Source: Bacteroidia bacterium (GTDB taxonomy: Bacteria > Bacteroidota > Bacteroidia > NS11-12g > UBA955). Taken from it: a stretch of DNA of 64,000 nucleotides. The stretch is from contig JAOASJ010000016.1 in the NCBI GenBank assembly GCA_030158725.1, positions 12,616 to 76,615 of the forward strand, read 5' to 3'. This document shows, piece by piece, positions 1 through 38,277 of the stretch. The number at the start of each line of letters is the position of its first letter. Positions within the stretch are counted from its first letter, which is position 1. The notes under the pieces were generated by a model. It was given only the letters and a program-made list of their open reading frames with translations. It was not told the DNA's origin and did no database searches. The position numbers and the translations under genes are program-made.

Positions 1-132
1 GCACTAGAAAAACTAAAATTAAATCCTAACGATGTCATTATGATAGGAGATAGCTTAGAAAAAGACGTTAAAGGGGCAGAAAATTTCGGCATTAAGGCCT
101 ACCTTATAAAAGATAATACAATATTGTTTTGA
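1..132 (+). CDS. HAD-superfamily hydrolase, C-terminal fragment (gene begins upstream of the window)
   Basis: Frame 1 is open from base 1 to TGA at 130-132 and reads ALEKLKLNPNDVIMIGDSLEKDVKGAENFGIKAYLIKDNTILF. The IMIGDS..D..GA..G string resembles the C-terminal Asp motif of HAD phosphatases. The stop overlaps the TTG start of the next ORF (TTGA). Confidence 0.55.
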   Translation, partial: ALEKLKLNPNDVIMIGDSLEKDVKGAENFGIKAYLIKDNTILF

Positions 133-2249
133 AAATCAACATTTCATTTTTATTTGATAAGCAAGGAAGAAGCAAAATTCCTTTAGCCAAATCAAGGTTG
201 TTTTGGGCTGGACTTATTTTTAAATTGGTTTTATCTATTTGTTTTGCTTCTACTTATTTAAGAGATTTATTTGCTCCATTTGCGAATTATTTTATTGATT
301 CTGGATTTCAAGACCCATACACTTATTTTATGCAAAATGGCAAGGGGATTGAATTCCCTTATCCTCCATTAATGTTGTGGTTGTTTTCTTTGCCAAGAAT
401 GATATTTTGGCCTTTGTTTCCAGGATCTATTGATGCCTTTAGTGTAGTAGATAGCTTAGTTTATCGCCTACCATTAATTATAGCAGATATTGCCATTTTA
501 TTGGTACTTATCCGTTGGCTTAAAAACTATACAAGACAAGTATTAATTTGGTATTGGTTATCGCCGGTATTAATCTATATAAATTATTTTCATGGACAAT
601 TGGATGTAATCCCAATGGCGTTTATGATGGCTTCTCTTTATTTTCTTTTTAAATCAAATTGGATACAAGCATTTATATTAATTGGTTTGGCAATAGGATG
701 CAAAACAAACATGGTCTTGGTATTGCCATTTTATGTGTTATACCTCATCCGTATATCTAATGTTGATTTCAAAACCCTGTTTTTGTCTCTTATCAGTTTG
801 ATATCAGTCTTGGTTTTAATCAATCTGCCATATATTCACTCCGATGGAATGGTGCAAATGGTTTATAACAATCCAGTTCAACAGCAAATATTTGACTTAT
901 ACTATCAATTTAATAAAACACTCAGAATATATTTTATACCAGCTATTTACTTTATTTTAGTTTTGTATTATTTCACTTTTAAATTTGTAAATAGAGACCA
1001 ACTTATTTTATTTTTAGCCTTTACTTTCTTGGCTTTAACCTTAATGATAGCTCCAATGCAAGGTTGGTATTATTGGATATTGCCATTGTTGGTTTATTTT
1101 GTTATCAAACAAAGTAAAATTGAGAAGTATACTTTAATTATTTTATCGGTCTTATATTTTGTTTATTTCGGACTGATCCAAGAGTCAGATTATTTGTTCT
1201 CATTTAATTTCAATCAAAATGGGTATGAAGCTCTAGGTCCAAAATATTATGAAAAGGCACTGAATGTAAGTTTTACTTTACTGCAAACAACTTTGGTTTT
1301 ATTGGCCTACTTGGTGTTCAAAAATGGAATACGAAATAACATTCAAACAAAGTTTTTATCCCAACCATACTTAATTGGCATTGGAGGTGACTCTGCCAGT
1401 GGCAAGTCAACTTTAAGTAATGCTTTGGCAGAAGTTTTTGAGTTATCCAACACAAGTATTATACGAGGCGATGATATGCACAAATGGGAAAGGGGTAACG
1501 AAAATTGGAATGTATTTACTCATTTAGATCCAAGAGCAAATAAAATACATGAAGATTTTGAGCATGCTAAAGAGTTAAAGTCAGGCAACAGCATACAACG
1601 CAGGAATTATGACCACAGTACTGGGAAATTCACATTACCTAAATTTATTAAGCCAAATAAATTAATTGTCTTCGAAGGACTTCATTCGTTTTATTTAAAC
1701 AACCAATCGAGTGTCTATGACTTAAAGATATTTATGGAACCCGATGAAAAGTTGCGCATGTGGTGGAAAGTTCAAAGGGATGTTGCAAAAAGAGGATATT
1801 CGCCAGAAAAAGTGCTTGAGCAGTTAAGGATGCGCGAAGAGGATTCTCAAAAATATATTCGCTCTCAAGCCAATCAAGCAGATATCATCGCTCAGTTTTA
1901 TCCCTTAAATGATATTGACCCGATAAATCAAGACATTGAGCCAATTATTGGTTTAAAAATGGTTATTTCAAATGATGTAAATCTTGATCCATTAATTGAA
2001 AGATTGAATGGTATAGATTCCTTAACTCTAGACCATAAATATAATAATGAACATCAAGAACTTTACTTCAAAGGTGGTATTAGCAATGAGCATATTGAAC
2101 AGCTTGCCGACCGTTGTATTCCAGAATTAGAGGATGTGGGTATTTACAATACTAAATGGAAAGAAAATTATGAAGGAATATTACAACTTGTATCTACCTT
2201 TATTATTTTTAATTCAATGAAAAATAAAGATTTAAATGCAAAGTACTAA
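129..2249 (+). CDS. Fusion protein: polytopic GT-C-like membrane domain (GT87/DUF2029-like) plus a C-terminal phosphoribulokinase/uridine-kinase-family P-loop domain
   Basis: 706-aa ORF with a TTG start. Residues 1 to about 400 have roughly ten hydrophobic spans and the loop string GKGIEFPYPPLMLWLF, like the YPP loop motif of GT87/DUF2029 proteins. Residues about 415-600 carry Walker A IGIGGDSASGKST, then GDDMHKWER, HLDPRAN, VFEGLH and WWKVQRDVAKRGYS, in the order typical of the PRK/uridine kinase family. Confidence 0.6.
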   Translation: MKINISFLFDKQGRSKIPLAKSRLFWAGLIFKLVLSICFASTYLRDLFAPFANYFIDSGFQDPYTYFMQNGKGIEFPYPPLMLWLFSLPRMIFWPLFPGSIDAFSVVDSLVYRLPLIIADIAILLVLIRWLKNYTRQVLIWYWLSPVLIYINYFHGQLDVIPMAFMMASLYFLFKSNWIQAFILIGLAIGCKTNMVLVLPFYVLYLIRISNVDFKTLFLSLISLISVLVLINLPYIHSDGMVQMVYNNPVQQQIFDLYYQFNKTLRIYFIPAIYFILVLYYFTFKFVNRDQLILFLAFTFLALTLMIAPMQGWYYWILPLLVYFVIKQSKIEKYTLIILSVLYFVYFGLIQESDYLFSFNFNQNGYEALGPKYYEKALNVSFTLLQTTLVLLAYLVFKNGIRNNIQTKFLSQPYLIGIGGDSASGKSTLSNALAEVFELSNTSIIRGDDMHKWERGNENWNVFTHLDPRANKIHEDFEHAKELKSGNSIQRRNYDHSTGKFTLPKFIKPNKLIVFEGLHSFYLNNQSSVYDLKIFMEPDEKLRMWWKVQRDVAKRGYSPEKVLEQLRMREEDSQKYIRSQANQADIIAQFYPLNDIDPINQDIEPIIGLKMVISNDVNLDPLIERLNGIDSLTLDHKYNNEHQELYFKGGISNEHIEQLADRCIPELEDVGIYNTKWKENYEGILQLVSTFIIFNSMKNKDLNAKY

Positions 2250-3279
2250 ACAAGAACTTTTAGAATTAACAAAACTGTTTTTAAATCGAGCAGATTTAAT
2301 TCAAGGACCTGGTGGAAATACATCAGTTAAATCTGAAGATGGTTCAATGTTTATCAAAGCCTCTGGTTTTAGATTTGATGAAATGTCTTTGACTAAAGGC
2401 ATATCTGCAGTTAACTCTACTAAAATTGCCAAATATTTTTTTTCAGTTGAGCCTCTAGATAAAGTTAAGGAAGAGAAAACAATGTTGGGTGTAATTGCAG
2501 ATAATATATTAACTGATACCGATGGTAATATATTTCCCAAGCCTAGCATGGAAACTGGTTTTCATGCAATTTTGGAAAAATATGTCATTCACACACATTC
2601 TGTTTGGACCAACTTAATTAACTGTGCTCAAGAAAAGACGAGTTTAATTGAAAAGTTGAAACAGAAAACAGGGTTACAAATTGAGATTTTACCTTTTGTT
2701 AGTCCTGGTTTTGGATTGTCGTATCTGATAGCAAAAATTTTAAAGCAAAATGCTGTGAGTGGTATAAGACGTCCAGATGTTTTCTTTCTTTCCAATCACG
2801 GAATTATTTCCCACGCCCAAAGTATAGAATTGTGTCAAGATCAATTATTTAAAATAGATCAGGCCATCAAAGATTTACTTAATATCAAACTAGAATATCC
2901 GAGTATTGAGCTTAAGGAAGACGCATTACGATGGATACCTCAAAGTTCATTTGTGAATAGTGTTTTATCCAAGTATCAATGTCAATCTGATTTCTTTAAT
3001 CAGGTTTTGTTCCCAGATCAAACGGTTTTCTTTAAAGATCAAATCGCATACGATTCAATAGAAACGAATAGAAAAATTCACATATCTATACAGAAGCAGA
3101 TCAGTTATAATTGTAACTCTAGGGAAGCAGGTTCAATACATGAAACCATGACAGCCTATCTATTTATTTATGACTTCATGCACTCAAATAATATTCCCAT
3201 TGAATTAATTGGTGATTCAGAAATTGATTACATCAATAACATGGAAATGGAAAAGTACCGTAAAAAGATTCAAAATTAG
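2236..3279 (+). CDS. Class II aldolase/adducin-family protein with a C-terminal extension
   Basis: 347 aa. It has the GPGGNTSVK phosphate loop, ETGFHAIL...VIHTHS metal-binding histidines and SNHGIISHA, in the order typical of zinc-dependent class II aldolase/epimerase folds. The last ~130 aa carry no motif I recognise. It overlaps the upstream gene by 14 nt. Confidence 0.7.
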   Translation: MQSTKQELLELTKLFLNRADLIQGPGGNTSVKSEDGSMFIKASGFRFDEMSLTKGISAVNSTKIAKYFFSVEPLDKVKEEKTMLGVIADNILTDTDGNIFPKPSMETGFHAILEKYVIHTHSVWTNLINCAQEKTSLIEKLKQKTGLQIEILPFVSPGFGLSYLIAKILKQNAVSGIRRPDVFFLSNHGIISHAQSIELCQDQLFKIDQAIKDLLNIKLEYPSIELKEDALRWIPQSSFVNSVLSKYQCQSDFFNQVLFPDQTVFFKDQIAYDSIETNRKIHISIQKQISYNCNSREAGSIHETMTAYLFIYDFMHSNNIPIELIGDSEIDYINNMEMEKYRKKIQN

Positions 3280-3283
3280 TAAA

Positions 3284-4063
3284 ATGAAAATAGTGATTCC
3301 AATGTCTGGTTTAGGTAAGCGTTTTGCTGATGCTGGTTATACCGACATTAAACCGTTGATAAAGGTGCATGGAAAACCTATTATAGAATGGGTTGTTAGC
3401 ATGTTTCCTGGGGACAATGATTTTATATTTATTTGCCGAAATGAGCATTTAGAAAAAACAGAACTAAAAAGCGTTTTAAATAGAATTGCCCCAGAAGGTA
3501 AAATTATAGGTATAGATGGGCATAAATACGGACCGGTTTACGCTGTAAGTAAAGTGTTTGATTTGATAAATGATGAGGAAGAGGTTATCGTAAATTATTG
3601 CGATTTCTATCAAAAATGGGATTTCTCAGATTTCGTTTTTACAGTCAATAAGTTGAAAGTTGATGGAGCAATTCCTTGCTATACTGGTTTTCACCCCCAT
3701 TTATTACACCCACAGAACTTATATGCATCTTGTAAAGTTGATGAAAGCAAGTTTTTATTAGAAATTAGGGAGAAATTTTCTTTTGAAATAGATAAAACTA
3801 AGGCATATCACTCCGGTGGTACCTATTATTTTTCAAAGGGCAAATTTGTAAAGAAGTACTTTCAAATGATGATAGATGAAGATGTGAATTTAAATGGTGA
3901 ATACTATGTTAGTTTGGTTTATAATTTAATGTTAAGGGATAATTTAAAGGTCTTAGTTTATGACCAAGTGCCATTTTTCTGTCAATGGGGAACCCCAAGT
4001 GATCTTGAAGAATACTTAACTTGGAGTAAAATAATTAATCATTATAAAACGGAAAAAATATGA
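3284..4063 (+). CDS. Sugar-phosphate nucleotidyltransferase-fold protein (paralog 1)
   Basis: I chose the ATG at 3284 (MKIVIPMSGLGKRF), 5 nt after the upstream stop. The ORF-track start at 3209 overlaps the aldolase gene. It has an N-terminal glycine-rich NTP-binding loop and a C-terminal WGTPSDLEEY. Confidence 0.6.
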   Translation: MKIVIPMSGLGKRFADAGYTDIKPLIKVHGKPIIEWVVSMFPGDNDFIFICRNEHLEKTELKSVLNRIAPEGKIIGIDGHKYGPVYAVSKVFDLINDEEEVIVNYCDFYQKWDFSDFVFTVNKLKVDGAIPCYTGFHPHLLHPQNLYASCKVDESKFLLEIREKFSFEIDKTKAYHSGGTYYFSKGKFVKKYFQMMIDEDVNLNGEYYVSLVYNLMLRDNLKVLVYDQVPFFCQWGTPSDLEEYLTWSKIINHYKTEKI

Positions 4064-4806
4064 TTGCACTAATTCCAATGGCAGGTGCTGGGAGTCGATT
4101 TGTTGAAGCGGGTTACAACATTCCAAAACCATTGTTGCCTTTAATGGGAACACCAATGGTTGTTAAAGCGGCTTTGGCTTTACCTAGTTCTGATAAATAT
4201 ATATTTGTGGTAAGAGATTTTCAAATAAATGACTTTCAGATTGACATTCATTTGAAAAGTCATTTTTCAAATAGTGAAATCATAGTCTTAGACCATTTAA
4301 CCGAAGGTCAAGCCATTACATGTTTAGAAGCCAAGTCTTTGATTGATAATGATGAGGCTTTACTCATTGGTGCAAGCGACAATGGAATGGTATACGATAG
4401 AGCTGCGTTTCAAGAAGCAAGTATGAATGCAGATGCTTTAGTCTTTACATTTAGAAATAATCCTTCTGTTTTGGCTAAGCCACAAGCTTATGGTTGGGTT
4501 CAAGTAAATCAGTCAAATGAAGTTGAAAAAGTAAGCGTTAAAGTACCTTTGAGCAATACCCCAATGAATGACCATGCTGTGGTTGGTGCATTTTGGTTTC
4601 GCAAAGGTTCTATGTTTGTAGAGGCAGCTGAGCATATGGTTGCGAACAATAAACGTATTAATAATGAATTTTATGTTGATGAATGCATCAATGATTTAAT
4701 TGAATTAGGATATAAAGTTAAAGCTTTTGAAATTGAACATTATGTTTGTTGGGGTACACCAAATGATTATGAAACTTTTAATTATTGGGAAAAGTTTTTT
4801 AAATGA
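4060..4806 (+). CDS. Sugar-phosphate nucleotidyltransferase-fold protein (paralog 2)
   Basis: It begins MIALIPMAGAGSRF and has a C-terminal WGTPNDYETF. It is clearly paralogous to the preceding ORF. Its start overlaps the upstream stop (ATGA). Confidence 0.6.
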   Translation: MIALIPMAGAGSRFVEAGYNIPKPLLPLMGTPMVVKAALALPSSDKYIFVVRDFQINDFQIDIHLKSHFSNSEIIVLDHLTEGQAITCLEAKSLIDNDEALLIGASDNGMVYDRAAFQEASMNADALVFTFRNNPSVLAKPQAYGWVQVNQSNEVEKVSVKVPLSNTPMNDHAVVGAFWFRKGSMFVEAAEHMVANNKRINNEFYVDECINDLIELGYKVKAFEIEHYVCWGTPNDYETFNYWEKFFK

Positions 4807-4902: not shown

Positions 4903-5271
4903 ATGAAATACTTATTCTCTTTTGAAAAATTAAATGTTTGGATTGCAAGTAAGGACCTAGCGCTATTGATTTATAAAGGTTCAGAAGGTTTTCCAAAATC
5001 AGAAAATTTTGGTTTAGTAAACCAAATCCGCCAATCATCTATTTCAATATCTTCAAACATAGCTGAAGGTAATTCTAGGAAGTCCAAAACCGACAGGTTA
5101 AGGTTTTTTAACATTGCATATTCTAGTTTGATGGAAATGTTAAGTCAATCGATTATTGCTTACGAATTAGGATTTATTACAAGTGATAATTACCATAAAA
5201 TACGTGAATTAAGCAATGAGATTTCGAACAAACTTATTGCATTAATGAACAAACAGGAAACTTTCCAATAA
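4903..5271 (+). CDS. Four-helix-bundle protein (23S rRNA intervening-sequence protein / Avd-like family)
   Basis: 122 aa. FEKLNVWIASKDLALLIY, FGLVNQIRQSSISISSNIAEGNSR and FFNIAYSSLMEM match the family hallmarks (L.vw..a, QlrRa..Si..NIAEG, GS..E). Confidence 0.85.
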   Translation: MKYLFSFEKLNVWIASKDLALLIYKGSEGFPKSENFGLVNQIRQSSISISSNIAEGNSRKSKTDRLRFFNIAYSSLMEMLSQSIIAYELGFITSDNYHKIRELSNEISNKLIALMNKQETFQ

Positions 5272-5340: not shown

Positions 5341-6054
5341 ATGCTCTCAATCATCCTACCTTGTTACAATGAAAAAGACAATTTAGTTGCTCTATTCGAA
5401 CGCCTTGATTTGTTGGTTAAAGCAAGTGATGAAATAGAAATTGTTTTAGTTAATAATGGTTCAAATGATGGATCAGATATAGTATTTGAACAAGAGGTAT
5501 TAAGTCGAAGTAAAGAAATATTTAAAATTGTTCATGTCAAAGAAAATAAAGGGTATGGCTTCGGAATCCTTAGCGGCCTAAGGGCAGCAAAAGGCAATGT
5601 ATTGGCTGTGACTCATGCGGATCGACAAACCGATCCTATGGATGTTTTAAAAGCATACGAAATATATAGAAGTAAAGGTGACCTTAATTTATTGGTTAAA
5701 GGGTTCCGAAAAAACAGAAAAATTTCAGAAGCTGTTTTTTCATATGGAATGGGACTATTGGCATCAATTGTTTTAGGAAGTAGATTAACCGAAATAAATG
5801 CACAGCCTAAACTATTTAGTAAATCGTTTTTTGACACCTACAAGAATGATGCACCAAATGACTTTTCGCTTGATCTTTATTTACTATATAAGGCAAAAAA
5901 ACACGGTCAAATTATTGATTTTCCAGTATACTTTTCCAAAAGGGTAGCCGGTGAGGCTAAAGGTGGAAGTGGTAGTTCATTTAAAGTAAAATGGAAATTA
6001 ATAAAGCGCAGCTTCTCATATATATTCGAATTAAAAAGGTCATTAACTAAATAA
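5341..6054 (+). CDS. GT2 glycosyltransferase, polyprenyl-phosphate sugar synthase type (DPM1/ArnC/GtrB-like)
   Basis: It begins MLSIILPCYNEKDNL, followed by VNNGSNDGS, GYGFGILSGL and THADRQTDP. At 237 aa it has the size typical of this subgroup. Confidence 0.75.
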   Translation: MLSIILPCYNEKDNLVALFERLDLLVKASDEIEIVLVNNGSNDGSDIVFEQEVLSRSKEIFKIVHVKENKGYGFGILSGLRAAKGNVLAVTHADRQTDPMDVLKAYEIYRSKGDLNLLVKGFRKNRKISEAVFSYGMGLLASIVLGSRLTEINAQPKLFSKSFFDTYKNDAPNDFSLDLYLLYKAKKHGQIIDFPVYFSKRVAGEAKGGSGSSFKVKWKLIKRSFSYIFELKRSLTK

Positions 6055-6067
6055 ATATCTAACTAGA

Positions 6068-7642
6068 ATGAAGCAATTTTTTAAGAAATACACCATTGAA
6101 TTGGTTTTTGGCTTGGTATTTATTGGACTTTCCTTGCGCTTAAATCTGCAGTTTTTATTAGGATCTAACATCAACACAATTATTGCAGGACACGACGAAT
6201 ATATAGCCGTTAAAGAAGTGTATTCAATACTTCACCCAATCTCACTTAAACATTTTGTAATGGCAGTTATTAGTGGTAACGCTTTATATTATGGTCGCAT
6301 TATGTTTTACATTGATGCAATTGTCGCATTTTTACCTTTTAAAATCTGGGGTACAACAGGTATGGTATTGGCCATTAGAATGTTTCATGCAATTTGTATT
6401 CTGTCTGCATTTCTGATTTTAAGTAAAACCTTTTTGGAAACCAATAGACAAAGGGTCTTGTTTTTTATTGGGTCGTTCTGTTTGTATTTTACAATGTACT
6501 TCATTATGATGCCAAAGCCTGAGCCTCTGCAACTTTTGATTTTGACATTGTTTTTACATCAACTTAAAAAATCCAATTGGTCATTTGGAAAGCATTTTAT
6601 TCTTTTAGGAATAGCATACGGACTTAAATTTAATGTCCTGTTAATTCTACCAATTGTATTTCTTTTACCTCTTATAAAGTCTGGTAAATTGAATATTACT
6701 AATTTAGTCTTACCAGGATTTCTATCTGTTTTTTATTTTATTATCGGTGTTATAATTGCAATACCTTGCCTGATATTAAGTCCTATAAAACCAATCTTTT
6801 TAAGCACTTATTTGCATGAAACCTTTGGGGGTACAGAAAAAGGATATGATTCAGCAACATTAAGTTTTAATGATTGGATGAGCTCTGGCCTTGGTGGTTC
6901 TTATTTGGGACATTGGACATTGGCTTACCCATTCTTAGTGTTTGTTTTGGTATTAATCTTTATTAATTTCAAAAAGTCATTTAAGACACAGAATTTTTCT
7001 TCAATTTTATTCATGGTAATGGGCTTGATTTTTGCTTTGGTTATCATGTTTAAAACCAAAAGACTATGGCCTCATTATTTATGGACTGCCTATATCTTCA
7101 TGCTATTAGGCATGATAGGTTCCCTACCAATTTTGGTAGATACATATATCAAAAAGATTCAGATAATAATAGTGTCTCTATTTGTCAGCTCTTCATTGTT
7201 TTTTTATTGTTATCGGGAGTTACCTTTGTATTTGGGTTTAGATCAAAGACCCGAAGTTCAGAATAATATTAGATGGAGCGAATTGGCCATCCAATATATT
7301 AACACAAAGTATAAAGGTTCTAAAATAGGTACGGATGGCTCATTTTTGTATCCATTTAAGGATTTTGTTGAGGTAGATTTGTATCATCCTTTTGCAACGA
7401 CTAGGCCAAAGGAAGCCGAAACACCATACATGTGGTATGTTGATGCTCCACAAAAGATTTGGGATGATTCAAATAAATTAGTGGTTTTCTATAAACGCTT
7501 ACCACCAAGAATGCTTAAAGAAAATCCTAATGTTTATGTTGGTAGACATCAAGAATTAAATACTTTATTTATTGAGAAAACAATGAAAGAGTTTGATTTA
7601 GATACTACTATAGGAGAATTACATATTTATAAACGCCGTTGA
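6068..7642 (+). CDS. Polytopic GT-C-like membrane glycosyltransferase (ArnT/PMT-like), tentative
   Basis: 524 aa with more than 10 hydrophobic spans. The first loop after TM1 carries AGHDEYIAVKEVYSIL, which resembles the DE..Y motif of the GT39/GT83 families. It lies 13 nt downstream of the GT2 gene. Confidence 0.5.
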   Translation: MKQFFKKYTIELVFGLVFIGLSLRLNLQFLLGSNINTIIAGHDEYIAVKEVYSILHPISLKHFVMAVISGNALYYGRIMFYIDAIVAFLPFKIWGTTGMVLAIRMFHAICILSAFLILSKTFLETNRQRVLFFIGSFCLYFTMYFIMMPKPEPLQLLILTLFLHQLKKSNWSFGKHFILLGIAYGLKFNVLLILPIVFLLPLIKSGKLNITNLVLPGFLSVFYFIIGVIIAIPCLILSPIKPIFLSTYLHETFGGTEKGYDSATLSFNDWMSSGLGGSYLGHWTLAYPFLVFVLVLIFINFKKSFKTQNFSSILFMVMGLIFALVIMFKTKRLWPHYLWTAYIFMLLGMIGSLPILVDTYIKKIQIIIVSLFVSSSLFFYCYRELPLYLGLDQRPEVQNNIRWSELAIQYINTKYKGSKIGTDGSFLYPFKDFVEVDLYHPFATTRPKEAETPYMWYVDAPQKIWDDSNKLVVFYKRLPPRMLKENPNVYVGRHQELNTLFIEKTMKEFDLDTTIGELHIYKRR

Positions 7643-8859
7643 AAAATACCTGTTATTATTTTGTAGATGATATTGAAACATCTTTTGTAATCAATGATAT
7701 CAAGAGGTTTTCAAAACAATATGAAAATATTGTCTTGTTTTCGGCCGAGATTATTGATGATAAGAGTGGATTGCCTACAAACGTTAGCGTTATTGACAAT
7801 TTTATAGATTGGTCTAAATTTAACAAGCTAAAGATTGTTATTACTCAATTTTGGACTTTAATTTATTTGTACATTAGTGAAATTTTAGCACTAAAAAAGT
7901 TTCTTCCATTGAAAGAATCAATAGCTCTTTTGTGTTCTAATATTTATAAAGCAGAAGAAGTTATAAGACATTTAAATGAAAGAAAAATACACGTCAAATC
8001 GGATAGTTTATTTTATTCTTTTTGGTTCTATGACTGTATATATCTTGCCTATTTGAAAAGAATTCATTTTGCCCCAAAAATTATAACTAGAGCACATGGG
8101 GGAGATGTTTTTGAAGAAAGAAGTTCACTAAGAGGAAAAGTTCTGTTTAGAAATTTTCAGATGAAACATTTCGATTATGTTTTTTCTGTTTCCAAAATTG
8201 GAGCTGATTATCTTAGAAAAAAATATGTAAAATTTCAATCAAAGATACAAGTATCCTATTTAGGTTCAGATGAGCCTAAACACTTAAATGAAATAAATAA
8301 TGAAGTGTTTACTTTGGTTAGTTGCGCGAAAATCCGAGATATAAAACGCGTTTACTTAATTGCAGAGGCCTTAATGTACATCAATTTTCCTTTAGTTTGG
8401 TACCATTTGGGAGATGAAAATTTAGATGCACATAATGATCCTACAGTGGAAATTTATGTTCAAAACATGCTTAAATTAAAGGAAAACAAGCATGTTAAAT
8501 CAATACAGTTGGGTCAATTATCGAATGAAGAAATATTTGAATTTTACACTAAGACTAAATGTAATTTATTTATCAGTTTGTCAGCAACTGAAGGAATACC
8601 AGTTAGTATGATGGAAGCCATAAGTTTTGGGTTGCCAATTTTATCAACAGATGTTGGTGGTTGCAATGAAATTGTAAATAATATTACTGGAATTTTAATT
8701 CCTGAAAATTTGCCAGCGGAATCTATTGCAAAGTCAATAATAGAATTTAAAGATTCTGCAATGAATATCAATGATTACAGGAGAAATATTCGAACTTTTT
8801 GGATAGAAAATTTTAACCAAACCACAAACTATTCTAAGTTTTTTGAACTAATAAAATGA
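7639..8859 (+). CDS. GT4-family glycosyltransferase
   Basis: The C-terminal SLSATEGIPVSMMEAISFGLPILSTDVGGCNEIV is the E-x7-E GT-B signature. The TTG start overlaps the upstream stop. Confidence 0.75.
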   Translation: MKNTCYYFVDDIETSFVINDIKRFSKQYENIVLFSAEIIDDKSGLPTNVSVIDNFIDWSKFNKLKIVITQFWTLIYLYISEILALKKFLPLKESIALLCSNIYKAEEVIRHLNERKIHVKSDSLFYSFWFYDCIYLAYLKRIHFAPKIITRAHGGDVFEERSSLRGKVLFRNFQMKHFDYVFSVSKIGADYLRKKYVKFQSKIQVSYLGSDEPKHLNEINNEVFTLVSCAKIRDIKRVYLIAEALMYINFPLVWYHLGDENLDAHNDPTVEIYVQNMLKLKENKHVKSIQLGQLSNEEIFEFYTKTKCNLFISLSATEGIPVSMMEAISFGLPILSTDVGGCNEIVNNITGILIPENLPAESIAKSIIEFKDSAMNINDYRRNIRTFWIENFNQTTNYSKFFELIK

Positions 8860-9866
8860 ACAATCAAGTTGAAATAATCGCTGAAATAGCGCAAGCCCAT
8901 GATGGTAGTCTTGGTATTGCGCATTCATATATAGATGCACTCCATGGAACTGGAGTAGATACAATTAAATTCCAAATGCATATAGCATCTCATGAGAGTA
9001 GTGCTTACGAACAGTTTAGAGTAAATTTTAGCTATGAGGATAAAACTAGATTTGATTATTGGGACAGAATGGGATTTACCTTTGAACAATGGGTTGGGTT
9101 AAAACAACATTGTGAAGATAAAGGCTTTAAATTTTTATGCTCTCCTTTTTCAATAAAAGCAGTAGAATGGATGGAGCAACTAGGTGTTGATAGGTATAAG
9201 ATTGCAAGTGGAGAAATAACCAATTATCTAATGATTGATCGTATTTGTAGCACAGGTAAATCTATACTATTGTCTAGTGGAATGAGCAGTTATGCGGAAA
9301 TTCTAGAATCGGTGGATTTTATTCATTCACATAATGGTAAATTTGAAGGCGTGTTTCAGTGTACAACTTCATATCCAACTCCACCAGAAAAATATGGTTT
9401 GAATGTATTGGCAGAGCTAAAAAATAAAACCAATGTTAAGGTTGGTTTAAGCGACCATTCTGGAGAGGTTTTTGCACCACTTGCAGCTGTTGCTTTAGGT
9501 GCTCAAATGCTTGAAATGCATGTTGTTTTTGATAAGAAAATGTTTGGGCCAGATGCAGCATCTTCTTTAACTATTTCAGATTTTAGAACCCTTTGTGAAG
9601 GAGTAAGGAAAATTGAAAAGGCATTAAGCAATCCTATTCAAAAAGACCATGTAGAGGCTTATAAAGAAATGAAGGTAATGTTTGGAAAGTCTATAACTGC
9701 TTCAAAAGATTTGAACAAAGGCCATATAATTCGAATCGAAGATTTAGAAACTACTAAGCCAGGAGATAAAGGTATTATGGCAAAAGATTACAGCAAGATT
9801 ATTGGAAAGGAATTGAATAAAGATATTTCAATCCATCAATTTATACAAAACAGTGATTTAGTATGA
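8856..9866 (+). CDS. neuB: Nonulosonic acid synthase (NeuB/LegI family; N-acetylneuraminate or legionaminate synthase)
   Basis: 336 aa. It shows IAEIAQAHDGSLGIAHSYIDA, YKIASGEITNY and GLSDHSGE, plus a C-terminal SAF-like segment (IIRIEDLETTKPGDKGI). Confidence 0.85.
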   Translation: MNNQVEIIAEIAQAHDGSLGIAHSYIDALHGTGVDTIKFQMHIASHESSAYEQFRVNFSYEDKTRFDYWDRMGFTFEQWVGLKQHCEDKGFKFLCSPFSIKAVEWMEQLGVDRYKIASGEITNYLMIDRICSTGKSILLSSGMSSYAEILESVDFIHSHNGKFEGVFQCTTSYPTPPEKYGLNVLAELKNKTNVKVGLSDHSGEVFAPLAAVALGAQMLEMHVVFDKKMFGPDAASSLTISDFRTLCEGVRKIEKALSNPIQKDHVEAYKEMKVMFGKSITASKDLNKGHIIRIEDLETTKPGDKGIMAKDYSKIIGKELNKDISIHQFIQNSDLV

Positions 9867-11020
9867 AAAAAAGAAAAATTTGTGTCATAATAACAGCTCG
9901 CCCAAGTTATAGTAGGGTAAGAACTGCTTTAATTGCTATTAACAATCATCCCGATTTGGAATTGCAATTGGTTGTGGCGGCTTCTGCATTGCTTGATCGA
10001 TATGGTTCAACCATAAATTACATTGAGGCTGATGGTTTTAAAATTGCCGAGAAGGTGTATATGATCATTGAAGGTGCAACTTTAACCAGTTCAGCTAAAA
10101 CGACAGGTATAGGAATTATGGAATTAGCCACAACGTTTGATAATTTAAAACCTGATATGGTATGTACCATAGGTGATCGTTATGAAACTATGGCAACAGC
10201 AATTGCAGCAAGTTATATGAATATTCCTTTGGTCCATATACAAGGGGGTGAAGTAACTGGAAATATAGATGAGAAAGTTAGACATGCAATTACCAAACTT
10301 TCAGATTTGCATCTAGTATCAAATGATGATGCAAAACAGAGGTTAATAAAAATGGGTGAGTATGAAGATAAAATTCATATTACAGGTTGTCCAAGTATAG
10401 ATATTGCTAAAATGGTTTTAGATCAACCAGAACTTGATTTTGATCCTTGTAATAAATATGGTGGAGTTGGTAAATATATTGATACCACTAAAGACTATAT
10501 TGTTGTCATGCAACACCCTGTGACCACTGAATTTGAAATGGCAAAATCTCAGGCCGAGAGTTTAATTAAGATAGTTCATGAATTAGATATGCCAGTTTTT
10601 TGGTTTTGGCCAAATCCTGATGCTGGTAGTGATGGTACAAGTAGCGCATTAAGAACACATAGAGAAGAGAATCCCGATAACCATATTCGTTTCTTTAAAA
10701 ATTTAGAAGGTGCTGATTTCCTTAAATTACTATACCATTCTAAATGTTTAATAGGAAATAGCAGTGTAGGAATTCGCGAATGTTCTTATTTAGGAATTCC
10801 AGTTGTAAATATTGGAAGCAGACAAAACAGGCGCTTAAGAGGTAAAAATGTAATTGATACAGATTACAATCAAGAAAACTTAAGAAATGCCATTTTAAAA
10901 CAAGTAAACCATGGTCATTATCCAATTGAAAATTTATATGGTAATGGTCATGCAGGTACAGCAATTGCTGATGTGTTAGTAAATGCCGGAACAGAAATTA
11001 AAAAAGTAATTAGTTATTAA
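9863..11020 (+). CDS. neuC: Hydrolysing UDP/GDP-N-acetylhexosamine 2-epimerase (NeuC/LegG family)
   Basis: 385 aa. It shows ICVIITARPSYSRV, GDRYETMATAIAAS, HIQGGEVTGNIDEKVRHAITKLS and GNSSVGIRE. Confidence 0.85.
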   Translation: MKKRKICVIITARPSYSRVRTALIAINNHPDLELQLVVAASALLDRYGSTINYIEADGFKIAEKVYMIIEGATLTSSAKTTGIGIMELATTFDNLKPDMVCTIGDRYETMATAIAASYMNIPLVHIQGGEVTGNIDEKVRHAITKLSDLHLVSNDDAKQRLIKMGEYEDKIHITGCPSIDIAKMVLDQPELDFDPCNKYGGVGKYIDTTKDYIVVMQHPVTTEFEMAKSQAESLIKIVHELDMPVFWFWPNPDAGSDGTSSALRTHREENPDNHIRFFKNLEGADFLKLLYHSKCLIGNSSVGIRECSYLGIPVVNIGSRQNRRLRGKNVIDTDYNQENLRNAILKQVNHGHYPIENLYGNGHAGTAIADVLVNAGTEIKKVISY

Positions 11021-11024
11021 AAAT

Positions 11025-12221
11025 ATGTCAAAAACGATGCACGGACTTCCTGAGGAAGTTATTTTTTGTAAAAAATGTTGTATCTCTAATCAGAGACCAA
11101 GTACAAAGAGAGAATTTTCAAAAAAAACAAGTAAAGATACAGATACCATTGGTTTAGGTGCCGATGGAATTTGTGATACTTGTAAATGGTTTGAGTTTAA
11201 AAAGACCATTGATTGGGAACAAAGAGAAAAACAATTGGAAGAATTATGTAATAAATTCAGAAGAAATGATGGAACTTATGATGTAATTGTACCTTCTAGT
11301 GGTGGAAAAGATAGTTTTTATGTAGCCCATCAATTGAAATACAAATATGGAATGAATCCACTTACTGTTACATGGGCTCCACATCAATATACAGAAATAG
11401 GTTGGAAAAATTTTGAAAGTATGATTGATGCTGGTTTTGACAATGTTTTGGTAACTCCAAATGGCAAAGTACATAGAGTGCTTACTAGATTGGCTTTCGA
11501 AAATTTAGTTAATCCTTTTCAACCATTTATTATTGGACAAAAAAATGTGGCTCCTAGAGCAGCATTACAATATGGTGTTCAGTTAATCATGTATGGTGAA
11601 AATCAAGCTGAGGCTCATAATAAATTAGAAGAAAATTTTAGTCCACTTATGGACATTTCTCACTTCTGTAAAAAAGAAGGTGAAGAATTATATTTTGGAG
11701 GTGTTCATATCAATGATTTAAAGAATCATGGTGTTGAAGAAAAAGATCTTTATTTATATAAACCATTAGATGAGAAAGATATTATCAATGCAGGTTTAGA
11801 GGTACATTTCTACAGTTTCTACAAAAATTGGTCTCCTCAAGAGAATTATTATTACGCAATGGAGCACTCAGGTTTTGAATCAAATCCTGATGGTAGAACT
11901 GAAGGTACTTATACTAAATTTGTTAGTTTAGATGATAAAATTGATGGTCAACATTACTACACCATGTTTATTAAATTTGGACAAGGTCGTGCCATGAATG
12001 ATGTTAATAGAGACATAAGAGATGGTTTTATAAGCCGTGAAGAAGGTATTGAATTAATTAACAAGTATGATGGTGAATTCCCTAAAAAATACTTCCAAGA
12101 AGTGTTAGATTACATGGGAATAAGCGAAGAACGCTATTGGGAAGTAATTGATAATGCACGTTCTCCACATTTATGGGACAAAGTAAATGGAGAGTGGGTC
12201 TTGAAGCATAAGACTGTATAA
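11025..12221 (+). CDS. N-acetyl sugar amidotransferase (WbpG/WbuX/PseA family, PP-loop ATPase)
   Basis: It has an N-terminal Cys cluster (CKKCCISNQRPS ... CDTCKW), the PP-loop VPSSGGKDS, and the conserved IMYGENQAE. Confidence 0.8.
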   Translation: MSKTMHGLPEEVIFCKKCCISNQRPSTKREFSKKTSKDTDTIGLGADGICDTCKWFEFKKTIDWEQREKQLEELCNKFRRNDGTYDVIVPSSGGKDSFYVAHQLKYKYGMNPLTVTWAPHQYTEIGWKNFESMIDAGFDNVLVTPNGKVHRVLTRLAFENLVNPFQPFIIGQKNVAPRAALQYGVQLIMYGENQAEAHNKLEENFSPLMDISHFCKKEGEELYFGGVHINDLKNHGVEEKDLYLYKPLDEKDIINAGLEVHFYSFYKNWSPQENYYYAMEHSGFESNPDGRTEGTYTKFVSLDDKIDGQHYYTMFIKFGQGRAMNDVNRDIRDGFISREEGIELINKYDGEFPKKYFQEVLDYMGISEERYWEVIDNARSPHLWDKVNGEWVLKHKTV

Positions 12222-12304
12222 AATCAAGTTTAGATTTGTATTGCATTAAATGGGTAGTAATTTAATTTCTTAATTATTTTACCTATTCAATAGGTGTATT
12301 TTTT

Positions 12305-13054
12305 ATGAAAAGAGTAATAGCAAGATTAGATATTAAAGGCAATAGATTGGTTAAAGGTATCCATATGGAAGGATGGAGATTTTTGCCAAACCATCCCAAT
12401 GATTATTGTTACAAATACTATTTGCAAGGCGTTGATGAGATAATTTATGTCGATGCTGTTGCTAGCTTATACAACAGAGATTCACTCAAAGAAATCATAA
12501 AAAAAACAACAGATAATGTTTTTGTTCCAATTACAGTTGGAGGAGGTATTCGTTCACTCGAAGATGCCTACGATATTTTAAGAAGTGGAGCCGACAAAGT
12601 TGCAATCTGTACACAGGCCGTTAAGAACCCAGAAATAATATCAGAAATAGCCGGCAAATTTGGAAATCAATGCATGGTACTGTCTATTCAAGCAAAGAAG
12701 AATCAGTCTGGTTCCTATTCGGTTTGGTATGATGTTGCTAGAGAAAAAACAGAAATTGATGTTATTGAATGGGCTCAAAAAGGGGAAGAACTAGGTGCCG
12801 GTGAAATTCTTTTAACATGCATTGACCATGAAGGTTTAGAAAGAGGGATGAATACAGAACTTATTTCTATGGTTTCTAAAGCAGTAAATATACCTGTGAT
12901 AGCTAGCGGCGGATTAGGAAAATCAGGTCATTTTGTAGATGCTATAGAGAGCGGTGCCGATGCGGTGGCTATTGCGAAAGCATTGCATTATGACAAACTT
13001 AATATTCAAGATATTAAGAACGAAGCAAGAAGTAAAAATATAAAAGTACGTTGA
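12305..13054 (+). CDS. hisF: HisF-like cyclase subunit paralog (glycosyl amidation-associated, WbuZ-type)
   Basis: It shows VIARLDIKGNRLVKG, PITVGGGIRS, ADKVAI, the Asp-containing CIDHEG and VIASGGLG. The context is polysaccharide synthesis, not a histidine operon. Confidence 0.8.
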   Translation: MKRVIARLDIKGNRLVKGIHMEGWRFLPNHPNDYCYKYYLQGVDEIIYVDAVASLYNRDSLKEIIKKTTDNVFVPITVGGGIRSLEDAYDILRSGADKVAICTQAVKNPEIISEIAGKFGNQCMVLSIQAKKNQSGSYSVWYDVAREKTEIDVIEWAQKGEELGAGEILLTCIDHEGLERGMNTELISMVSKAVNIPVIASGGLGKSGHFVDAIESGADAVAIAKALHYDKLNIQDIKNEARSKNIKVR

Positions 13055-13686
13055 TGACAAAAAATGTTTCAATAATCGACTATGGGATGAGCAATCTTCT
13101 TAGTATTTGCCGTGCTTTTGAGCATGTTGGAGCAAATGTAAAAATAGTAAGAACTGAAGCAGAAATTCTGAATTCAGATTACCTAGTACTTCCAGGAGTT
13201 GGTGCATTTCCAGATGGAATGAATGAATTAAAGTCAAGAAATTTGATAAATCCTATTAGGAACTTCTCATTAAAGGAAAGACCACTTTTAGGCATTTGTT
13301 TGGGCATGCAGATGTTGCTATCCAAAGGATTTGAACATAAAGAAACTGAGGGTTTAGGAATCATAGAAGGAGATGTATTGCCTTTGCCTAAAAATATGCC
13401 CAATTTTAAAGTGCCAAATATTAATTGGCATGCAATAAATGAACCTTCAAATGGCAAATGGTCGAATTCTCTATTAAGTGATACAAAGATTGAAACATGT
13501 TTTTATTTTGTACACTCCTATTTTGCAAATCCAAAAGACACTAATGATGTTCTAGCTGAAAGTAGCTTTGGTACTCTGAAGTTTGCTGCAGCAGTCAAAA
13601 GAAACAATATTTGTGGAACACAATTTCACCCAGAAAAGAGTGGTGAGGATGGGTTAAAATTGTTACAAAAGTTTTTAGAGTTATAA
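13054..13686 (+). CDS. hisH: HisH-like glutamine amidotransferase subunit paralog (WbuY-type)
   Basis: It shows IIDYGMSNL, LPGVGAF, the catalytic Cys in LGICLGMQML, and FHPEKSG. I preferred the ATG at 13054 over the TTG at 13051. Confidence 0.8.
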   Translation: MTKNVSIIDYGMSNLLSICRAFEHVGANVKIVRTEAEILNSDYLVLPGVGAFPDGMNELKSRNLINPIRNFSLKERPLLGICLGMQMLLSKGFEHKETEGLGIIEGDVLPLPKNMPNFKVPNINWHAINEPSNGKWSNSLLSDTKIETCFYFVHSYFANPKDTNDVLAESSFGTLKFAAAVKRNNICGTQFHPEKSGEDGLKLLQKFLEL

Positions 13687-13691
13687 AGAAA

Positions 13692-14381
13692 ATGAAAGTT
13701 CTTTGTATAATTCCAGCAAGGGGAGGCTCGAAAGGAATTCCTAAGAAAAATATTATTGATGTCAATGGTAAGCCTTTGATAGCGTATTCTATAGAACCTG
13801 CAATTGAAGCACAAAAGCTTGGCATAATTGATAAGGTTATAGTATCCACTGATTCTGAAGAAATAGCAAATATTTCATTAAAATATGGCGCTGAAATTCC
13901 TTTTTTAAGGCCATCTGAAATCTCTGGTGATAAAGCTAAATCAGTCGAATTCATAATGCATGCACTCGACTTTTATAGCAAGCAAGGAGTTAATTACGAC
14001 ACGGTATTATTGCTTCAACCAACTTCACCTCTTCGCACATTAAACGATTTATTGGCATCTTTAAATTTATATAAGGAAGCTGAAAATGACAGTTTAATTT
14101 CTGCATATGAAGAAGAATATATAAATGACTTGGTAATTTATAGAATGGGTGAAGATGGGAAAACGTCAATACCAGTGAACCATTTGCACAACAAGGGAGT
14201 TAGAAGACAAGAACATGGTTCTTTATATGTGAGAAACGGATGTATTTATATAAGTTCTGCTGAATTAATTGGTAAAGGATATGTTATCGGTGAGACTCCT
14301 TTAATGTATATTATGGAAAAGAATAAATCCGTAAACGTTGATACAATGGAAGATTTGGAGTTGCTTAGAAAATTATTATGA
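13692..14381 (+). CDS. neuA: CMP-nonulosonic acid synthetase (acylneuraminate cytidylyltransferase family)
   Basis: 229 aa. It shows CIIPARGGSKGIPKKNI, VSTDSEEI, LLQPTSPLR and RRQE. Confidence 0.8.
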   Translation: MKVLCIIPARGGSKGIPKKNIIDVNGKPLIAYSIEPAIEAQKLGIIDKVIVSTDSEEIANISLKYGAEIPFLRPSEISGDKAKSVEFIMHALDFYSKQGVNYDTVLLLQPTSPLRTLNDLLASLNLYKEAENDSLISAYEEEYINDLVIYRMGEDGKTSIPVNHLHNKGVRRQEHGSLYVRNGCIYISSAELIGKGYVIGETPLMYIMEKNKSVNVDTMEDLELLRKLL

Positions 14382-15304
14382 AGATCGGAATTTTAGAACC
14401 AGCAGACTTCTCGAGTATAGCTTCTCATAAGTTATCTAAGATTGGAAGTATTGAAAACTATTCTGGTGAAAAATTGGAAGAATTTTTATGTAACAAGGAG
14501 ATTATTTTTGTTCGTTTAAACTTCGATATAAATAAGGGTTTTTTAGAAGCTGCACCAAATTTAAAGTACATATGTTCACCGACCACTGGCTTAAATCATA
14601 TTGATGTTAATTATTGTCAATCTAAAGGGATTGAAATAATTTCGTTAAAAGGTGAAACTGATTTTTTAAATACTATTAGGGCTACTCCAGAACATACTCT
14701 GGGTCTAATTTTAGCTTTAAAAAGAAATTACAATTTTGCTTTTTTAAAAAGCGATAACTCAGAATGGAATAGAAACCCTTATAGGGGCTATGAGATTTAT
14801 GGTAGTAAAATTGGTATTGTTGGTTTTGGAAGAGTAGGAAAAATTCTATCTTCTTATTTAAAAAACATGGGTGCTTCTGTTGCTTTCTATGATATAAATA
14901 AAGATATTCAAGAGGAAGGTGTTCACAAATTCGATTCAATAGAATCTTTAATTGATGCTTGCGAGACAGTAGTTTTATGCAGCAGTTATACTGTTGAATA
15001 CGGATCTATCATTAATGAAAAGGAAATTGATGCATTAAAGAATAAATATTTTATTAATACAGCCAGGGCAGAGTTGACAAATGAATCATATTTATCTCAA
15101 CGAGCTTTAGAAGGCCATTTTAAAGGAATAGCAATTGATGTGATTCAAAATGAGCAAAGTGCTCAAAATAATTTGAAATCATGGTTAGAAGCAGCTGATA
15201 AATACAATGTAATTGTTACTCCACATATCGGTGGAGCTACATATTCATCTATGAATAGAACGGAGGAGTTTATCAGCGATAAATTATTAATGAGTTTTGA
15301 GTAA
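14378..15304 (+). CDS. D-isomer-specific 2-hydroxyacid dehydrogenase family protein
   Basis: It has the NAD loop IGIVGFGRVGK, ARAEL and the catalytic-region VTPHIGGAT. Its start overlaps the neuA-like stop (ATGA). Confidence 0.7.
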   Translation: MKIGILEPADFSSIASHKLSKIGSIENYSGEKLEEFLCNKEIIFVRLNFDINKGFLEAAPNLKYICSPTTGLNHIDVNYCQSKGIEIISLKGETDFLNTIRATPEHTLGLILALKRNYNFAFLKSDNSEWNRNPYRGYEIYGSKIGIVGFGRVGKILSSYLKNMGASVAFYDINKDIQEEGVHKFDSIESLIDACETVVLCSSYTVEYGSIINEKEIDALKNKYFINTARAELTNESYLSQRALEGHFKGIAIDVIQNEQSAQNNLKSWLEAADKYNVIVTPHIGGATYSSMNRTEEFISDKLLMSFE

Positions 15305-24455: not shown

Positions 24456-24618
24456 ATGATGGATTTTTTAGCTGATTTATGGAACTTTATGAAACAAAGA
24501 AAGAAATTCTGGTTGGTTCCAATAATTATAGTACTCCTTTTGTTAGGTGTGTTGTTGGTTGTAGGTGGCTCTAGCGCAGTAGCTCCTTTTATTTATACTT
24601 TATTCTAGGCTCTTATGA
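24456..24618 (+). pseudogene. SxtK/DUF5989-like small membrane protein gene, apparently frameshifted at a T5 run
   Basis: The frame starting at ATG 24456 reads MMDFLADLWNFMKQRKKFWLVPIIIVLLF and then hits TAG at 24573. The +1 frame from 24541 reads LLGVLLVVGGSSAVAPFIYTYSRLL, with TGA at 24616-24618 overlapping the next ATG. Joined at the T5 run (24538-24542), the two pieces resemble the family as I recall it (..FW.lPiil.LlllG.l......sa.aPFIYT..). Confidence 0.5.
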
Positions 24619-24983
24619 AAGAAATGAAAAGCAATCCCTCAAAAACGGTATTAACAATATCGGTGGGATTTTTATTTGTCTATTTATTTGCTAAATTAAA
24701 TTGGGCACTTTGGGTTTCTTTTGGAATTGGTTTAACAGGGGTATTCTCTGATTATCTAAGTCAATTAATTGAGAAAGTATGGATGAAGTTGGCATTTGTT
24801 TTAAGCAAGATAGTTCCAAATATTATTTTAGGAATTATATTTTTCGCTTTATTGTTACCGATTTCATTATTATCAAAAGTATTCAGAAAGCAAGACGTAC
24901 TAAAATTGCGAAATTCTTCGGATTCTGTATACAGTCTTAAGCCTGGGGCTTATGATAAGGCACACTTTGAAAACATGTGGTAA
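24615..24983 (+). CDS. SxtJ-like small membrane protein
   Basis: 122 aa with hydrophobic spans. The call rests on size, topology and position after the carbamoyltransferase and the SxtK-like gene. Confidence 0.5.
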   Translation: MKEMKSNPSKTVLTISVGFLFVYLFAKLNWALWVSFGIGLTGVFSDYLSQLIEKVWMKLAFVLSKIVPNIILGIIFFALLLPISLLSKVFRKQDVLKLRNSSDSVYSLKPGAYDKAHFENMW

Positions 24984-38103: not shown

Positions 38104-38110
38104 CCATGCA

Positions 38111-38218: not shown

Positions 38219-38277
38219 AGCGGATCTTGTCGTATAACGATTTTTAATCCTGCTCTCTTGTACTTGCATTTATTAAA

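Follow-up and report, generated by a model that had tools for sequence, protein, structure and literature searches.

Ribulose-1,5-bisphosphate (RuBP) is familiar as the compound to which RuBisCO adds CO2, and it also occurs as an intermediate in the breakdown of nucleosides by archaea. Phosphoribulokinase (PRK, EC 2.7.1.19) is commonly taken as a marker of the Calvin cycle in metagenomes, for example in the paper on RuBisCO and PRK in the CPR (candidate phyla radiation), which deals with unfused PRKs. Here we analyzed a stretch of 64,000 nucleotides from a Bacteroidia bacterium (assembly GCA_030158725.1, contig JAOASJ010000016.1, positions 12,616 to 76,615 of the forward strand), called the window below, in which one open reading frame (ORF) joins a membrane domain having the fold of the GT-C glycosyltransferases to a kinase domain of the PRK type. 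No paper describing this fusion or its operon, and no characterised example, was found in the literature searched, in agreement with the first-pass annotation of the window, which knew of none.

The Gtr-type systems (GtrA/GtrB/GtrC), the Arn system (ArnC/ArnT) and the pentofuranose three-component systems (Kelly et al. 2024, PMC11127046) follow the general plan that we propose for the operon described here, in which a sugar is loaded on polyprenyl phosphate by a synthase, a small membrane protein like GtrA takes part, and a GT-C enzyme acts once polymerisation is over. The differences are that the present operon would have its own six-enzyme pathway to the donor sugar, starting from ribulose-5-phosphate (Ru5P), and that its GT-C domain shares one polypeptide with the enzyme which would open this pathway. 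In the systems of PMC11127046 the lipid donor is made from phosphoribosyl pyrophosphate by a UbiA-type synthase, whereas here we propose that a GT2 glycosyltransferase makes it from a nucleotide sugar.

The second comparison is with the haloarchaeal non-carboxylating pentose bisphosphate pathway (Sato et al. 2022, PMC9700705), in which the gene of a RuBP 5-phosphatase, strictly specific for RuBP and giving ribulose-1-phosphate (Ru1P), shares its operon with that of a class II (FucA-like) Ru1P aldolase. A HAD phosphatase resembling this enzyme also stands beside a class II aldolase-family enzyme in the present operon, for which RuBP and Ru1P are predicted intermediates. In haloarchaea RuBP comes from nucleosides via ribose-1,5-bisphosphate (R15P) isomerase and the route ends in dihydroxyacetone phosphate and glycolaldehyde, whereas here RuBP is predicted to come from Ru5P by PRK, and nucleotidyltransferases and glycosyltransferases follow. 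The aldolase-like enzyme also differs from the haloarchaeal Ru1P aldolase in belonging to another, longer subfamily. Neither ribose-1-phosphate kinase nor R15P isomerase had a match among the annotated conserved neighbour clusters, no direct search for either having been made.

The operon resembles the three-component glycosylation systems with a new donor branch that would contain two steps of the haloarchaeal pathway. We propose that the fused protein is a bifunctional protein of the inner membrane and that its gene is the hallmark of a conserved operon which is laterally mobile and puts a pentose-derived sugar on a surface glycan, and we give this reading a probability of roughly 0.55. The membrane tether most likely couples the synthesis of the donor sugar to its use.

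The fused protein and its two domains

The fusion is a real and widely conserved bacterial protein. The first-pass annotation had described a single ORF of 706 amino acids; this ORF was confirmed, it carries all the motifs quoted there, and the protein search gave a 706-amino-acid protein with 97% identity from independent data. More than 100 full-length relatives, with identity down to 42%, were recovered in the same search, and where they are named they are called 'uridine kinase/Gpi18-like mannosyltransferase', 'DUF2029 domain-containing protein', 'zeta toxin family protein' or 'hypothetical'. In our locus set (83 fetched loci, numbered L, and the window), ORF clustering gave a single ORF in 83 of the 84, the exception being L080, where the gene is split into ORFs of 387 and 308 amino acids. 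The architecture is conserved in other genomes: a scan of one genome per species gave 494 stretches encoding a relative, and the carriers are Bacteroidota, several lineages of Patescibacteria, Rickettsiales, Melainabacteria, Bdellovibrionota and one spirochaete symbiont, with two cultured carriers, Eudoraea adriatica DSM 19308 and Aurantibacillus circumpalustris. When the membrane half was used as query against 1.8 billion cluster representatives, 232 clusters (50% identity) were found at E<=1e-30, and most among the 150 best of these are 660-750 amino acids long, i.e. kinase-fused.

The kinase half is a complete P-loop kinase of the PRK type, as had been claimed. Pfam PRK (PF00485) matches residues 415-596 with E=1.7e-40 (139.3 bits, cut-off 22), and the best NCBIfam model is the phosphoribulokinase subfamily PRK07429 with 208.6 bits, just under its cut-off of 236 bits, far ahead of the uridine kinase model with only 77 bits. 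A profile built from 47 family members matched the solved PRKs of the PDB with E values of 1.7e-58 to 1e-40 and the uridine kinases at about 1e-19, some 130 bits lower. In the AlphaFold2 model of the full-length protein (mean local confidence pLDDT 87.4, pTM 0.79), residues from about 405 to 706 superpose in Foldseek on entire PRK chains (9qko, TMt 0.77; 5b3f, 0.74), over about 300 columns for complete PRK chains against about 190 for uridine kinases. Because whole PRK chains are covered, the C-terminal 110 residues correspond to the sheet domain of PRK and not to an unknown extension. The nearest enzymes by sequence and fold are the 'cyanobacteria-specific PRK' (9qkn, 9qko, 9qkp) and the archaeal PRK of Methanospirillum hungatei (5b3f).

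The residues which make a PRK are also retained. The Walker A sequence GDSASGKS (residues 420-427, nt 1386-1409) agrees with the pattern GxxxxGK[ST]. In the published structures the Ru5P phosphate is held by R64, Y103 and H105 of CrPRK and by R59, Y98 and H100 of MhPRK, and the catalytic Asp160 of CrPRK is flanked by R159 and R164; alignment with the Synechococcus PRK maps these residues to R455, Y494, H496, R550, D551 and R555. Over 81 full-length relatives, in which all residue conservation was counted, the Walker A lysine K426 and the catalytic D551 are never lost, and D448, H451, R455, Y494, H496, K547, R550 and R555 are likewise invariant, with R550, D551 and R555 lying within WKVQRDVAKRG. 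The domain has the look of a functional PRK-type kinase acting on a phosphorylated ketose, and on all sequence tests except membership at the curated threshold it would be classed as a PRK. Uridine kinase, zeta-toxin-like UDP-N-acetylglucosamine (UDP-GlcNAc) kinase and undecaprenol kinase were considered and rejected, the substrate residues and fold specific to PRK being kept and the uridine kinases scoring far lower. With PRK the domain shares the complete fold with its C-terminal sheet, Walker A, the catalytic Asp and all the conserved residues binding the phosphate of Ru5P. It differs from PRK in being joined to a membrane domain of 400 amino acids and in standing within a glycan operon with a RuBP-phosphatase-like HAD instead of carbon-fixation genes, RuBisCO itself not having been searched for.

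The membrane half is glycosyltransferase-like by fold in the model, which bears out the GT-C-like character assigned to it earlier. It was modelled separately, because Foldseek results for the full-length protein are dominated by the kinase, and the AlphaFold2 model of residues 1-410 alone has a pLDDT of 90.6 and a pTM of 0.90. Its best Foldseek match is GPI mannosyltransferase I (9wno, E 6.6e-6, TM-score 0.66), other matches being ALG3, ALG6, PIG-U, ArnT and PimE, with TM-scores of 0.61 for 9s6r and 0.60 for 6snh, so that the overall fold is shared with PIG-M/Gpi14, ALG3, ALG6 and the GT87 enzyme PimE at TM-scores of 0.60-0.66. Membership of GT87 proper was not supported: the GT87/DUF2029 model (PF09594) matches residues 76-223 of the window protein with E=0.0083 and 16.3 bits, below its cut-off of 25, and the catalytic Asp or DXD which GT-C enzymes have in their first external loop has no conserved counterpart. 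Among the 47 family members, 23 match GT87 at E<0.01 (best E 2.6e-6) and 10 match ALG6/ALG8. The FPYPP motif is part of a conserved loop specific to this family and is no proof of GT87 membership. In contrast to the ALG/PIG-type enzymes, the fusion has only weak GT87 and ALG6/8 matches, is without the conserved first-loop DXD or Asp, and bears a cytoplasmic kinase; in common with them, its operon has a GT2 which could make a lipid-phosphate sugar donor.

Several residues of the membrane half are strictly kept: D120, K192, Y78, W313, Y314 and W316 are invariant in 81 of 81, K32, Y64, H155, Q157 and D159 (the segment H155-G-Q-L-D159) occur in 80 of 81, and D354 is also strictly or nearly strictly conserved. 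A profile of the N-terminal domain against PDB sequences gave a marginal match to GPI mannosyltransferase I (E 0.02), which was used only to place the DXD and the lysine, and in this weak alignment K192 falls on the lysine of the HFKIYP segment of PIG-M. The invariant D120 and the near-invariant D159 could be stand-ins for the first-loop acid. Most of the conserved polar and aromatic residues would lie near the outer face, a placement deduced from the topology and not from coordinates. The topology itself was derived from the AlphaFold2 helices, from the positive-inside rule and basic loops, and from cytoplasmic (aldolase-like) domains or GtrA fused at the ends in relatives, the Kyte-Doolittle profile being ambiguous. 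In the full-length model the DSSP helix 374-411 continues straight to the strand 414-420, with pLDDT below 50 at residues 404-409.

The operon, its gene fusions and the viral version

Among the 83 fetched loci the order HAD, fusion, aldolase-like gene, first nucleotidyltransferase (NT1), second nucleotidyltransferase (NT2), GT2 is conserved in several phyla, and the window has the identical order from the tail of the HAD gene to the second polytopic protein (Table 1). The operon also holds a small protein, c4, sometimes GtrA, and usually a variable second polytopic protein of 520-690 amino acids. Start and stop overlaps join HAD with the fusion, the fusion with the aldolase-like gene, and NT1 with NT2: the frame-0 translation of the HAD tail stops at the TGA of 130-132, overlapping the TTG start of the fusion, and the stop of the fusion (2247-2249) lies within the aldolase-like gene, which has its ATG at 2236. 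The overlaps on both sides make the fusion an internal and translationally coupled member of the operon.

Table 1. Coordinates of the fusion, its domains and its operon neighbours in the window (nt, window positions; aa, residues of the fused protein)
Feature	nt	aa	Strand	Remarks
HAD phosphatase gene, 3' end	1-132		+	last 43 codons and stop; cut by the window edge
GT-C-like/PRK fusion ORF	129-2249	1-706	+	706 aa, TTG start, no interruption
GT-C-fold polytopic domain	129-1319	1-397	+	about 12 transmembrane (TM) helices, both ends cytoplasmic (inferred topology)
Linker	1320-1361	398-411	+	basic extension of the last TM helix, joins membrane domain to kinase
PRK-type domain, complete	1362-2249	412-706	+	P-loop and PRK C-terminal sheet domain
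Class II aldolase-like metalloenzyme	2236-3279		+	347 aa; 14-nt overlap with the fusion
Nucleotidyltransferase NT1 (sugar-phosphate nucleotidylyltransferase-like)	3284-4063		+	weak Pfam NTP_transf_3 match; NCBIfam sugar-1-phosphate nucleotidylyltransferases; PDB 4evw
Nucleotidyltransferase NT2, paralogue of NT1	4060-4806		+	Pfam NTP_transferase E 1.8e-8, PDB 4evw; ATGA overlap with NT1
23S-rRNA-IVS protein gene (PF05635)	4903-5271			inserted in the operon between NT2 and GT2
GT2 glycosyltransferase	5341-6054		+	nearest to polyprenyl-phosphate sugar synthases (ArnC/GtrB/DPMS type)
Second polytopic protein	6068-7642		+	524 aa, about 11 hydrophobic helices

The partner enzymes carry much of the argument, above all the HAD. 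A full-length orthologous HAD gene lies directly upstream of the fusion in 59 loci, and in all 10 of the loci tested, from several phyla, the top NCBIfam family of its product is NF053830, the RuBP 5-phosphatase (E 2e-39 to 5e-60; 136-203 bits against an equivalog cut-off of 330), ahead of the next family by 22-82 bits, mostly 50-80. The aldolase-like gene is directly downstream of the fusion in 64 loci. Its product matches Pfam Aldolase_II (E 6.6e-15), and 63 orthologues keep E106, H119, H121 and H188, which align to the residues for metal binding and acid-base catalysis in class II aldolases, along with the phosphate-binding GGNxS; the enzyme is closest to rhamnulose-1-phosphate aldolase (RhaD-type) domains, the match to Ru1P aldolase being weak (E 2.3e-4). 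A PRK, a relative of RuBP 5-phosphatase and an enzyme of the class II aldolase family are hard to read together in any other way than as a route from Ru5P through RuBP and Ru1P to a further product, as far as sequence can indicate substrates. NT1 occurs in 68 loci with 44-83% identity across phyla, and both NT1 and NT2 keep the G-x-G-x-R signature. GT2, present in 55 loci, matches Pfam Glycos_transf_2 (E 8.9e-17), and its NCBIfam matches are ArnC, PgfS and dolichyl-phosphate hexose transferase (E about 1e-10 to 2e-4), far under their cut-offs.

The remaining members are more variable. The protein c4 gave no Pfam, NCBIfam or PDB match, and its hhalign match to the GDPD cluster is weak (probability 22%), the label 'GDPD-like' resting solely on the motif HR..E.D..HD. 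A canonical GDPD of about 240 amino acids takes the place of the aldolase-like gene in the Bacteroidota loci L011, L017-L023, L025 and L080; c4 is absent in most of these and truncated in L022, which suggests that c4 and GDPD are functional counterparts. GtrA, which in other lineages lies next to the GT-C domain or is fused to it, is a separate gene in 18 of the 84 loci; it was not found within the 64-kb window by tblastn, and the ORF maps of those Bacteroidota loci which are nearest to the window do not show it either. The 524-amino-acid polytopic protein, without Pfam, NCBIfam or PDB assignment, belongs to a family found in 20 loci, and elsewhere other polytopic proteins of 520-690 amino acids, one of them PMT_2-like, stand at the same position. 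It has a weak colinear hhalign match to the membrane domain of the fusion with a common GLAxGxKxNxxLxLP-like motif, and it could be a strongly diverged paralogue of the GT-C type or an acceptor-specific GT-C-like transferase.

The operon sits in a polysaccharide locus with GT4, NeuB and NeuC genes. In the window the regions 8856-14381 and 21549-23423 encode a NeuB-like synthase, a NeuC-like UDP-GlcNAc 2-epimerase, a HisF-like cyclase, a CTP_transf_3 CMP-sugar cytidylyltransferase and a carbamoyltransferase; these genes indicate a locus for a carbamoylated surface glycan containing nonulosonic acid. A second gene of the PF05635 family lies at 24615-24983, and inserts similar to the one between NT2 and GT2 were seen in L010 and L036. 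In one subgroup of Bacteroidota (L028-L032, L035, L045, L052) a fusion of about 677 amino acids and the aldolase-like gene follow an unrelated gene of about 440 amino acids, and in this subgroup no NT, GT2 or HAD gene was found within 10 kb.

The same genes are also fused to each other in various combinations. GtrA is placed N-terminally before the GT-C and PRK domains in proteins of 835-844 amino acids (P0153, P0159, P0181), the aldolase follows them in proteins of about 1058 amino acids (P0132), and NT1-NT2 and NT2-GT2 fusions occur in other genomes. Viruses have PRK-aldolase, HAD-aldolase and c4-NT1-NT2 fusions, among which HAD with class II aldolase (about 555 amino acids; L086:2465-4144) and c4-NT1-NT2 (L090 and L118; ORFs of about 745 amino acids) come from contigs of giant-virus metagenome-assembled genomes (MAGs). 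By the HAD-aldolase and c4-NT1-NT2 fusions the enzymes of the same pathway have been linked independently.

A scan of viral contigs gave 53 loci of large phages and giant-virus MAGs (L084-L136 in our numbering) with the kinase half only, at 36-48% identity and with the same WERG motif. These unfused kinases have 460-490 amino acids (L084:9347-10789; L086:1051-2451), and in place of the GT-C domain they have an N-terminal domain of about 215 amino acids, which matches nothing in the PDB and DUF7796 weakly (E 0.0016). Of the 53 loci, 46 have NT1/NT2 and 43 the aldolase-like gene; HAD and c4 occur in some, and no membrane domain, GT2 or GtrA was detected in any. The soluble enzymes are therefore a self-contained unit ending at the nucleotidyltransferases, and this unit appears to have the shape of a nucleotide-sugar pathway, its last steps being predicted nucleotidyl transfers. 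Cellular genomes join it to GT2, GtrA and GT-C, components like those of a periplasmic glycosylation system of the Gtr/Arn type. The viral contigs with the kinase also hold GT61, NDP-sugar dehydratase/epimerase and PhoH genes.

Proposed pathway and competing readings

The data show the two folds, the conserved residues, the operon, the gene fusions and the unfused viral version; which substrate each step uses, what the sugar is and that the membrane domain works as a transferase we infer, and the order of events would be as follows. The C-terminal domain would act in the cytoplasm as a true phosphoribulokinase, converting Ru5P and ATP to RuBP, from which the upstream HAD would strip the 5-phosphate to leave Ru1P. 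The class II aldolase-like enzyme and c4 would then remodel the ketose-1-phosphate, and NT1 and NT2 would convert the product to a nucleotide-activated sugar. GT2 would load this sugar on polyprenyl phosphate, with the GtrA-like membrane partner involved in some lineages, and after flipping the GT-C-fold domain would use the lipid-linked sugar on the outer face, alone or with the variable second polytopic protein. In this way the committed opening step in making the donor and the enzyme which uses the donor up would be tied together by the fusion. Of the two functions suggested in the first-pass annotation, the channelling or supply of a phosphosugar comes close to the genomic context, with the refinement that the kinase most likely opens the donor-sugar pathway.

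A more detailed chemistry can be offered, which we regard as doubtful. RuBP may be the committed intermediate of an undescribed nucleotide-sugar pathway, spread over at least five bacterial phyla, large phages and giant viruses, in which PRK and RuBP 5-phosphatase together would move the phosphate from C5 to C1; c4 and NT1/NT2 would then bring the activation, by way of a cyclic phosphate, to C2, the anomeric carbon, the donor formed would be an NDP-ketopentose (ribulo- or xylulofuranose) or some other rare pentose, and the GT-C domain would found a transferase family without the first-loop Asp. Within this scheme, the shift from the 1- to the 2-phosphate, in which the GDPD-like protein would form the cyclic phosphate and an NDP-ketopentose would result, is speculative and of low probability.

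The following points weigh against the proposed pathway. The kinase falls below the curated cut-off of its NCBIfam subfamily, and the HAD proteins fall below that of NF053830. A ketose-1-phosphate is not an obvious compound from which to make a glycosyl donor, and the scheme does not explain why two nucleotidyltransferases, both apparently active, should be needed. The replacement of the aldolase-like gene by GDPD in about ten loci means that the aldolase-like step is not obligatory, and about ten further Bacteroidota loci have the fusion and the aldolase-like gene only, with no NT or GT2 within 10 kb. In the membrane half the stretch from TM1 to FPYPP is without an invariant acid: position 46 is D or E in only 60 of 81 relatives, and where a weak alignment puts the second Asp of the DXD of PIG-M, 51 of the 81 have N and 9 have D. 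Transferase activity is unproven for this reason, and the second large polytopic protein, which stands just after GT2 in most complete operons, could be the real transferase.

From these last points comes the alternative that survives best, which we nevertheless consider unlikely: the membrane half may be an inert GT-C-like scaffold, a binder of carrier lipid or a flippase, which holds the kinase and the soluble pathway near GT2 and leaves the transfer to the second polytopic protein. The missing first-loop acid would suit such a role, PIG-U, a non-catalytic GT-C-fold protein of the GPI transamidase, is among the structural matches, and the absence of GtrA from the window and from the ORF maps of the nearest Bacteroidota leaves the role of flipping vacant there. 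A scaffold, however, would hardly be expected to be as conserved as the kinase, at about 40% identity across phyla, and the invariant or nearly invariant D120, K192, H155, Q157, D159, W313, Y314, W316 and D354 are charged and aromatic residues of the kind found in active sites, K192 moreover aligning, if weakly, with the PIG-M lysine. Some loci also have the fusion with no second polytopic protein nearby.

A catabolic or bypass route made of PRK, HAD and the aldolase-like enzyme, with only an incidental link to glycan genes, is improbable in our view. The likeness of the HAD to the haloarchaeal phosphatase, the metal ligands and the weak Ru1P aldolase match of the aldolase-like protein, and the loci holding only the fusion and the aldolase-like gene all fit such a route, but it leaves aside the synteny across phyla and the chain of pairwise gene fusions which connects these enzymes with the nucleotidyltransferases, GT2, GtrA and the GT-C domain. 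Rhamnulose-1-phosphate aldolase domains moreover resemble the aldolase-like enzyme more closely than Ru1P aldolase does, some loci have GDPD in place of this enzyme, and spending ATP on Ru5P before cleaving it would bring no obvious gain beside the ordinary pentose phosphate pathway.

Still less probable is a membrane-bound substrate for the kinase, the other function suggested in the first-pass annotation, in which a polyprenyl-phosphate-linked sugar or a nascent lipid-linked glycan would be phosphorylated to a product analogous to decaprenyl-phospho-ribose-5-phosphate. The kinase follows directly after the last TM helix, which could bring its active site close to the membrane, and the phosphate pocket of PRK could in principle take the phosphate of a polyprenyl-phosphate sugar. 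However, all the contacts of PRK to the soluble Ru5P are retained, the partner HAD is nearest to a phosphatase specific for the soluble RuBP, and the same kinase clade is unfused in the 53 viral loci, which means that the kinase works without a membrane domain and argues against a lipid-linked substrate. That the fusion is an artefact of mis-assembly, read-through of two genes or a pseudogene, for which only the split gene of L080 speaks, is already refuted by the conservation data, i.e. the uninterrupted ORF with its independent near-identical copy, the single ORF of the other loci, the kinase-fused length of most of the best clusters and the strong constraint on both halves.

Other features of the window and wider meaning

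Two further features of the window lie outside this operon. Two adjacent ORFs of 520 amino acids each (15297-16859 and 16873-18435) have no Pfam match. A SAM riboswitch (RF00162, 73.6 bits) at 38109-38220 lies directly upstream of the gene of a B12-dependent methionine synthase (38278-40983), for which the N-terminal homocysteine-binding domain is not among the Pfam matches listed.

Where PRK is counted as a sign of autotrophy, the fused and viral homologues could be included by mistake. If the proposed pathway is true, PRK and RuBP would get a biosynthetic role outside carbon fixation, in heterotrophs, in obligate symbionts (Patescibacteria, Rickettsiales) and in viruses. The membrane half represents a large uncharacterised GT-C family, found in the 232 clusters and 494 stretches, with a ready set of partners for reconstitution, and the operon points to an unknown nucleotide-activated, pentose-derived sugar on the surfaces of microbes and viruses.

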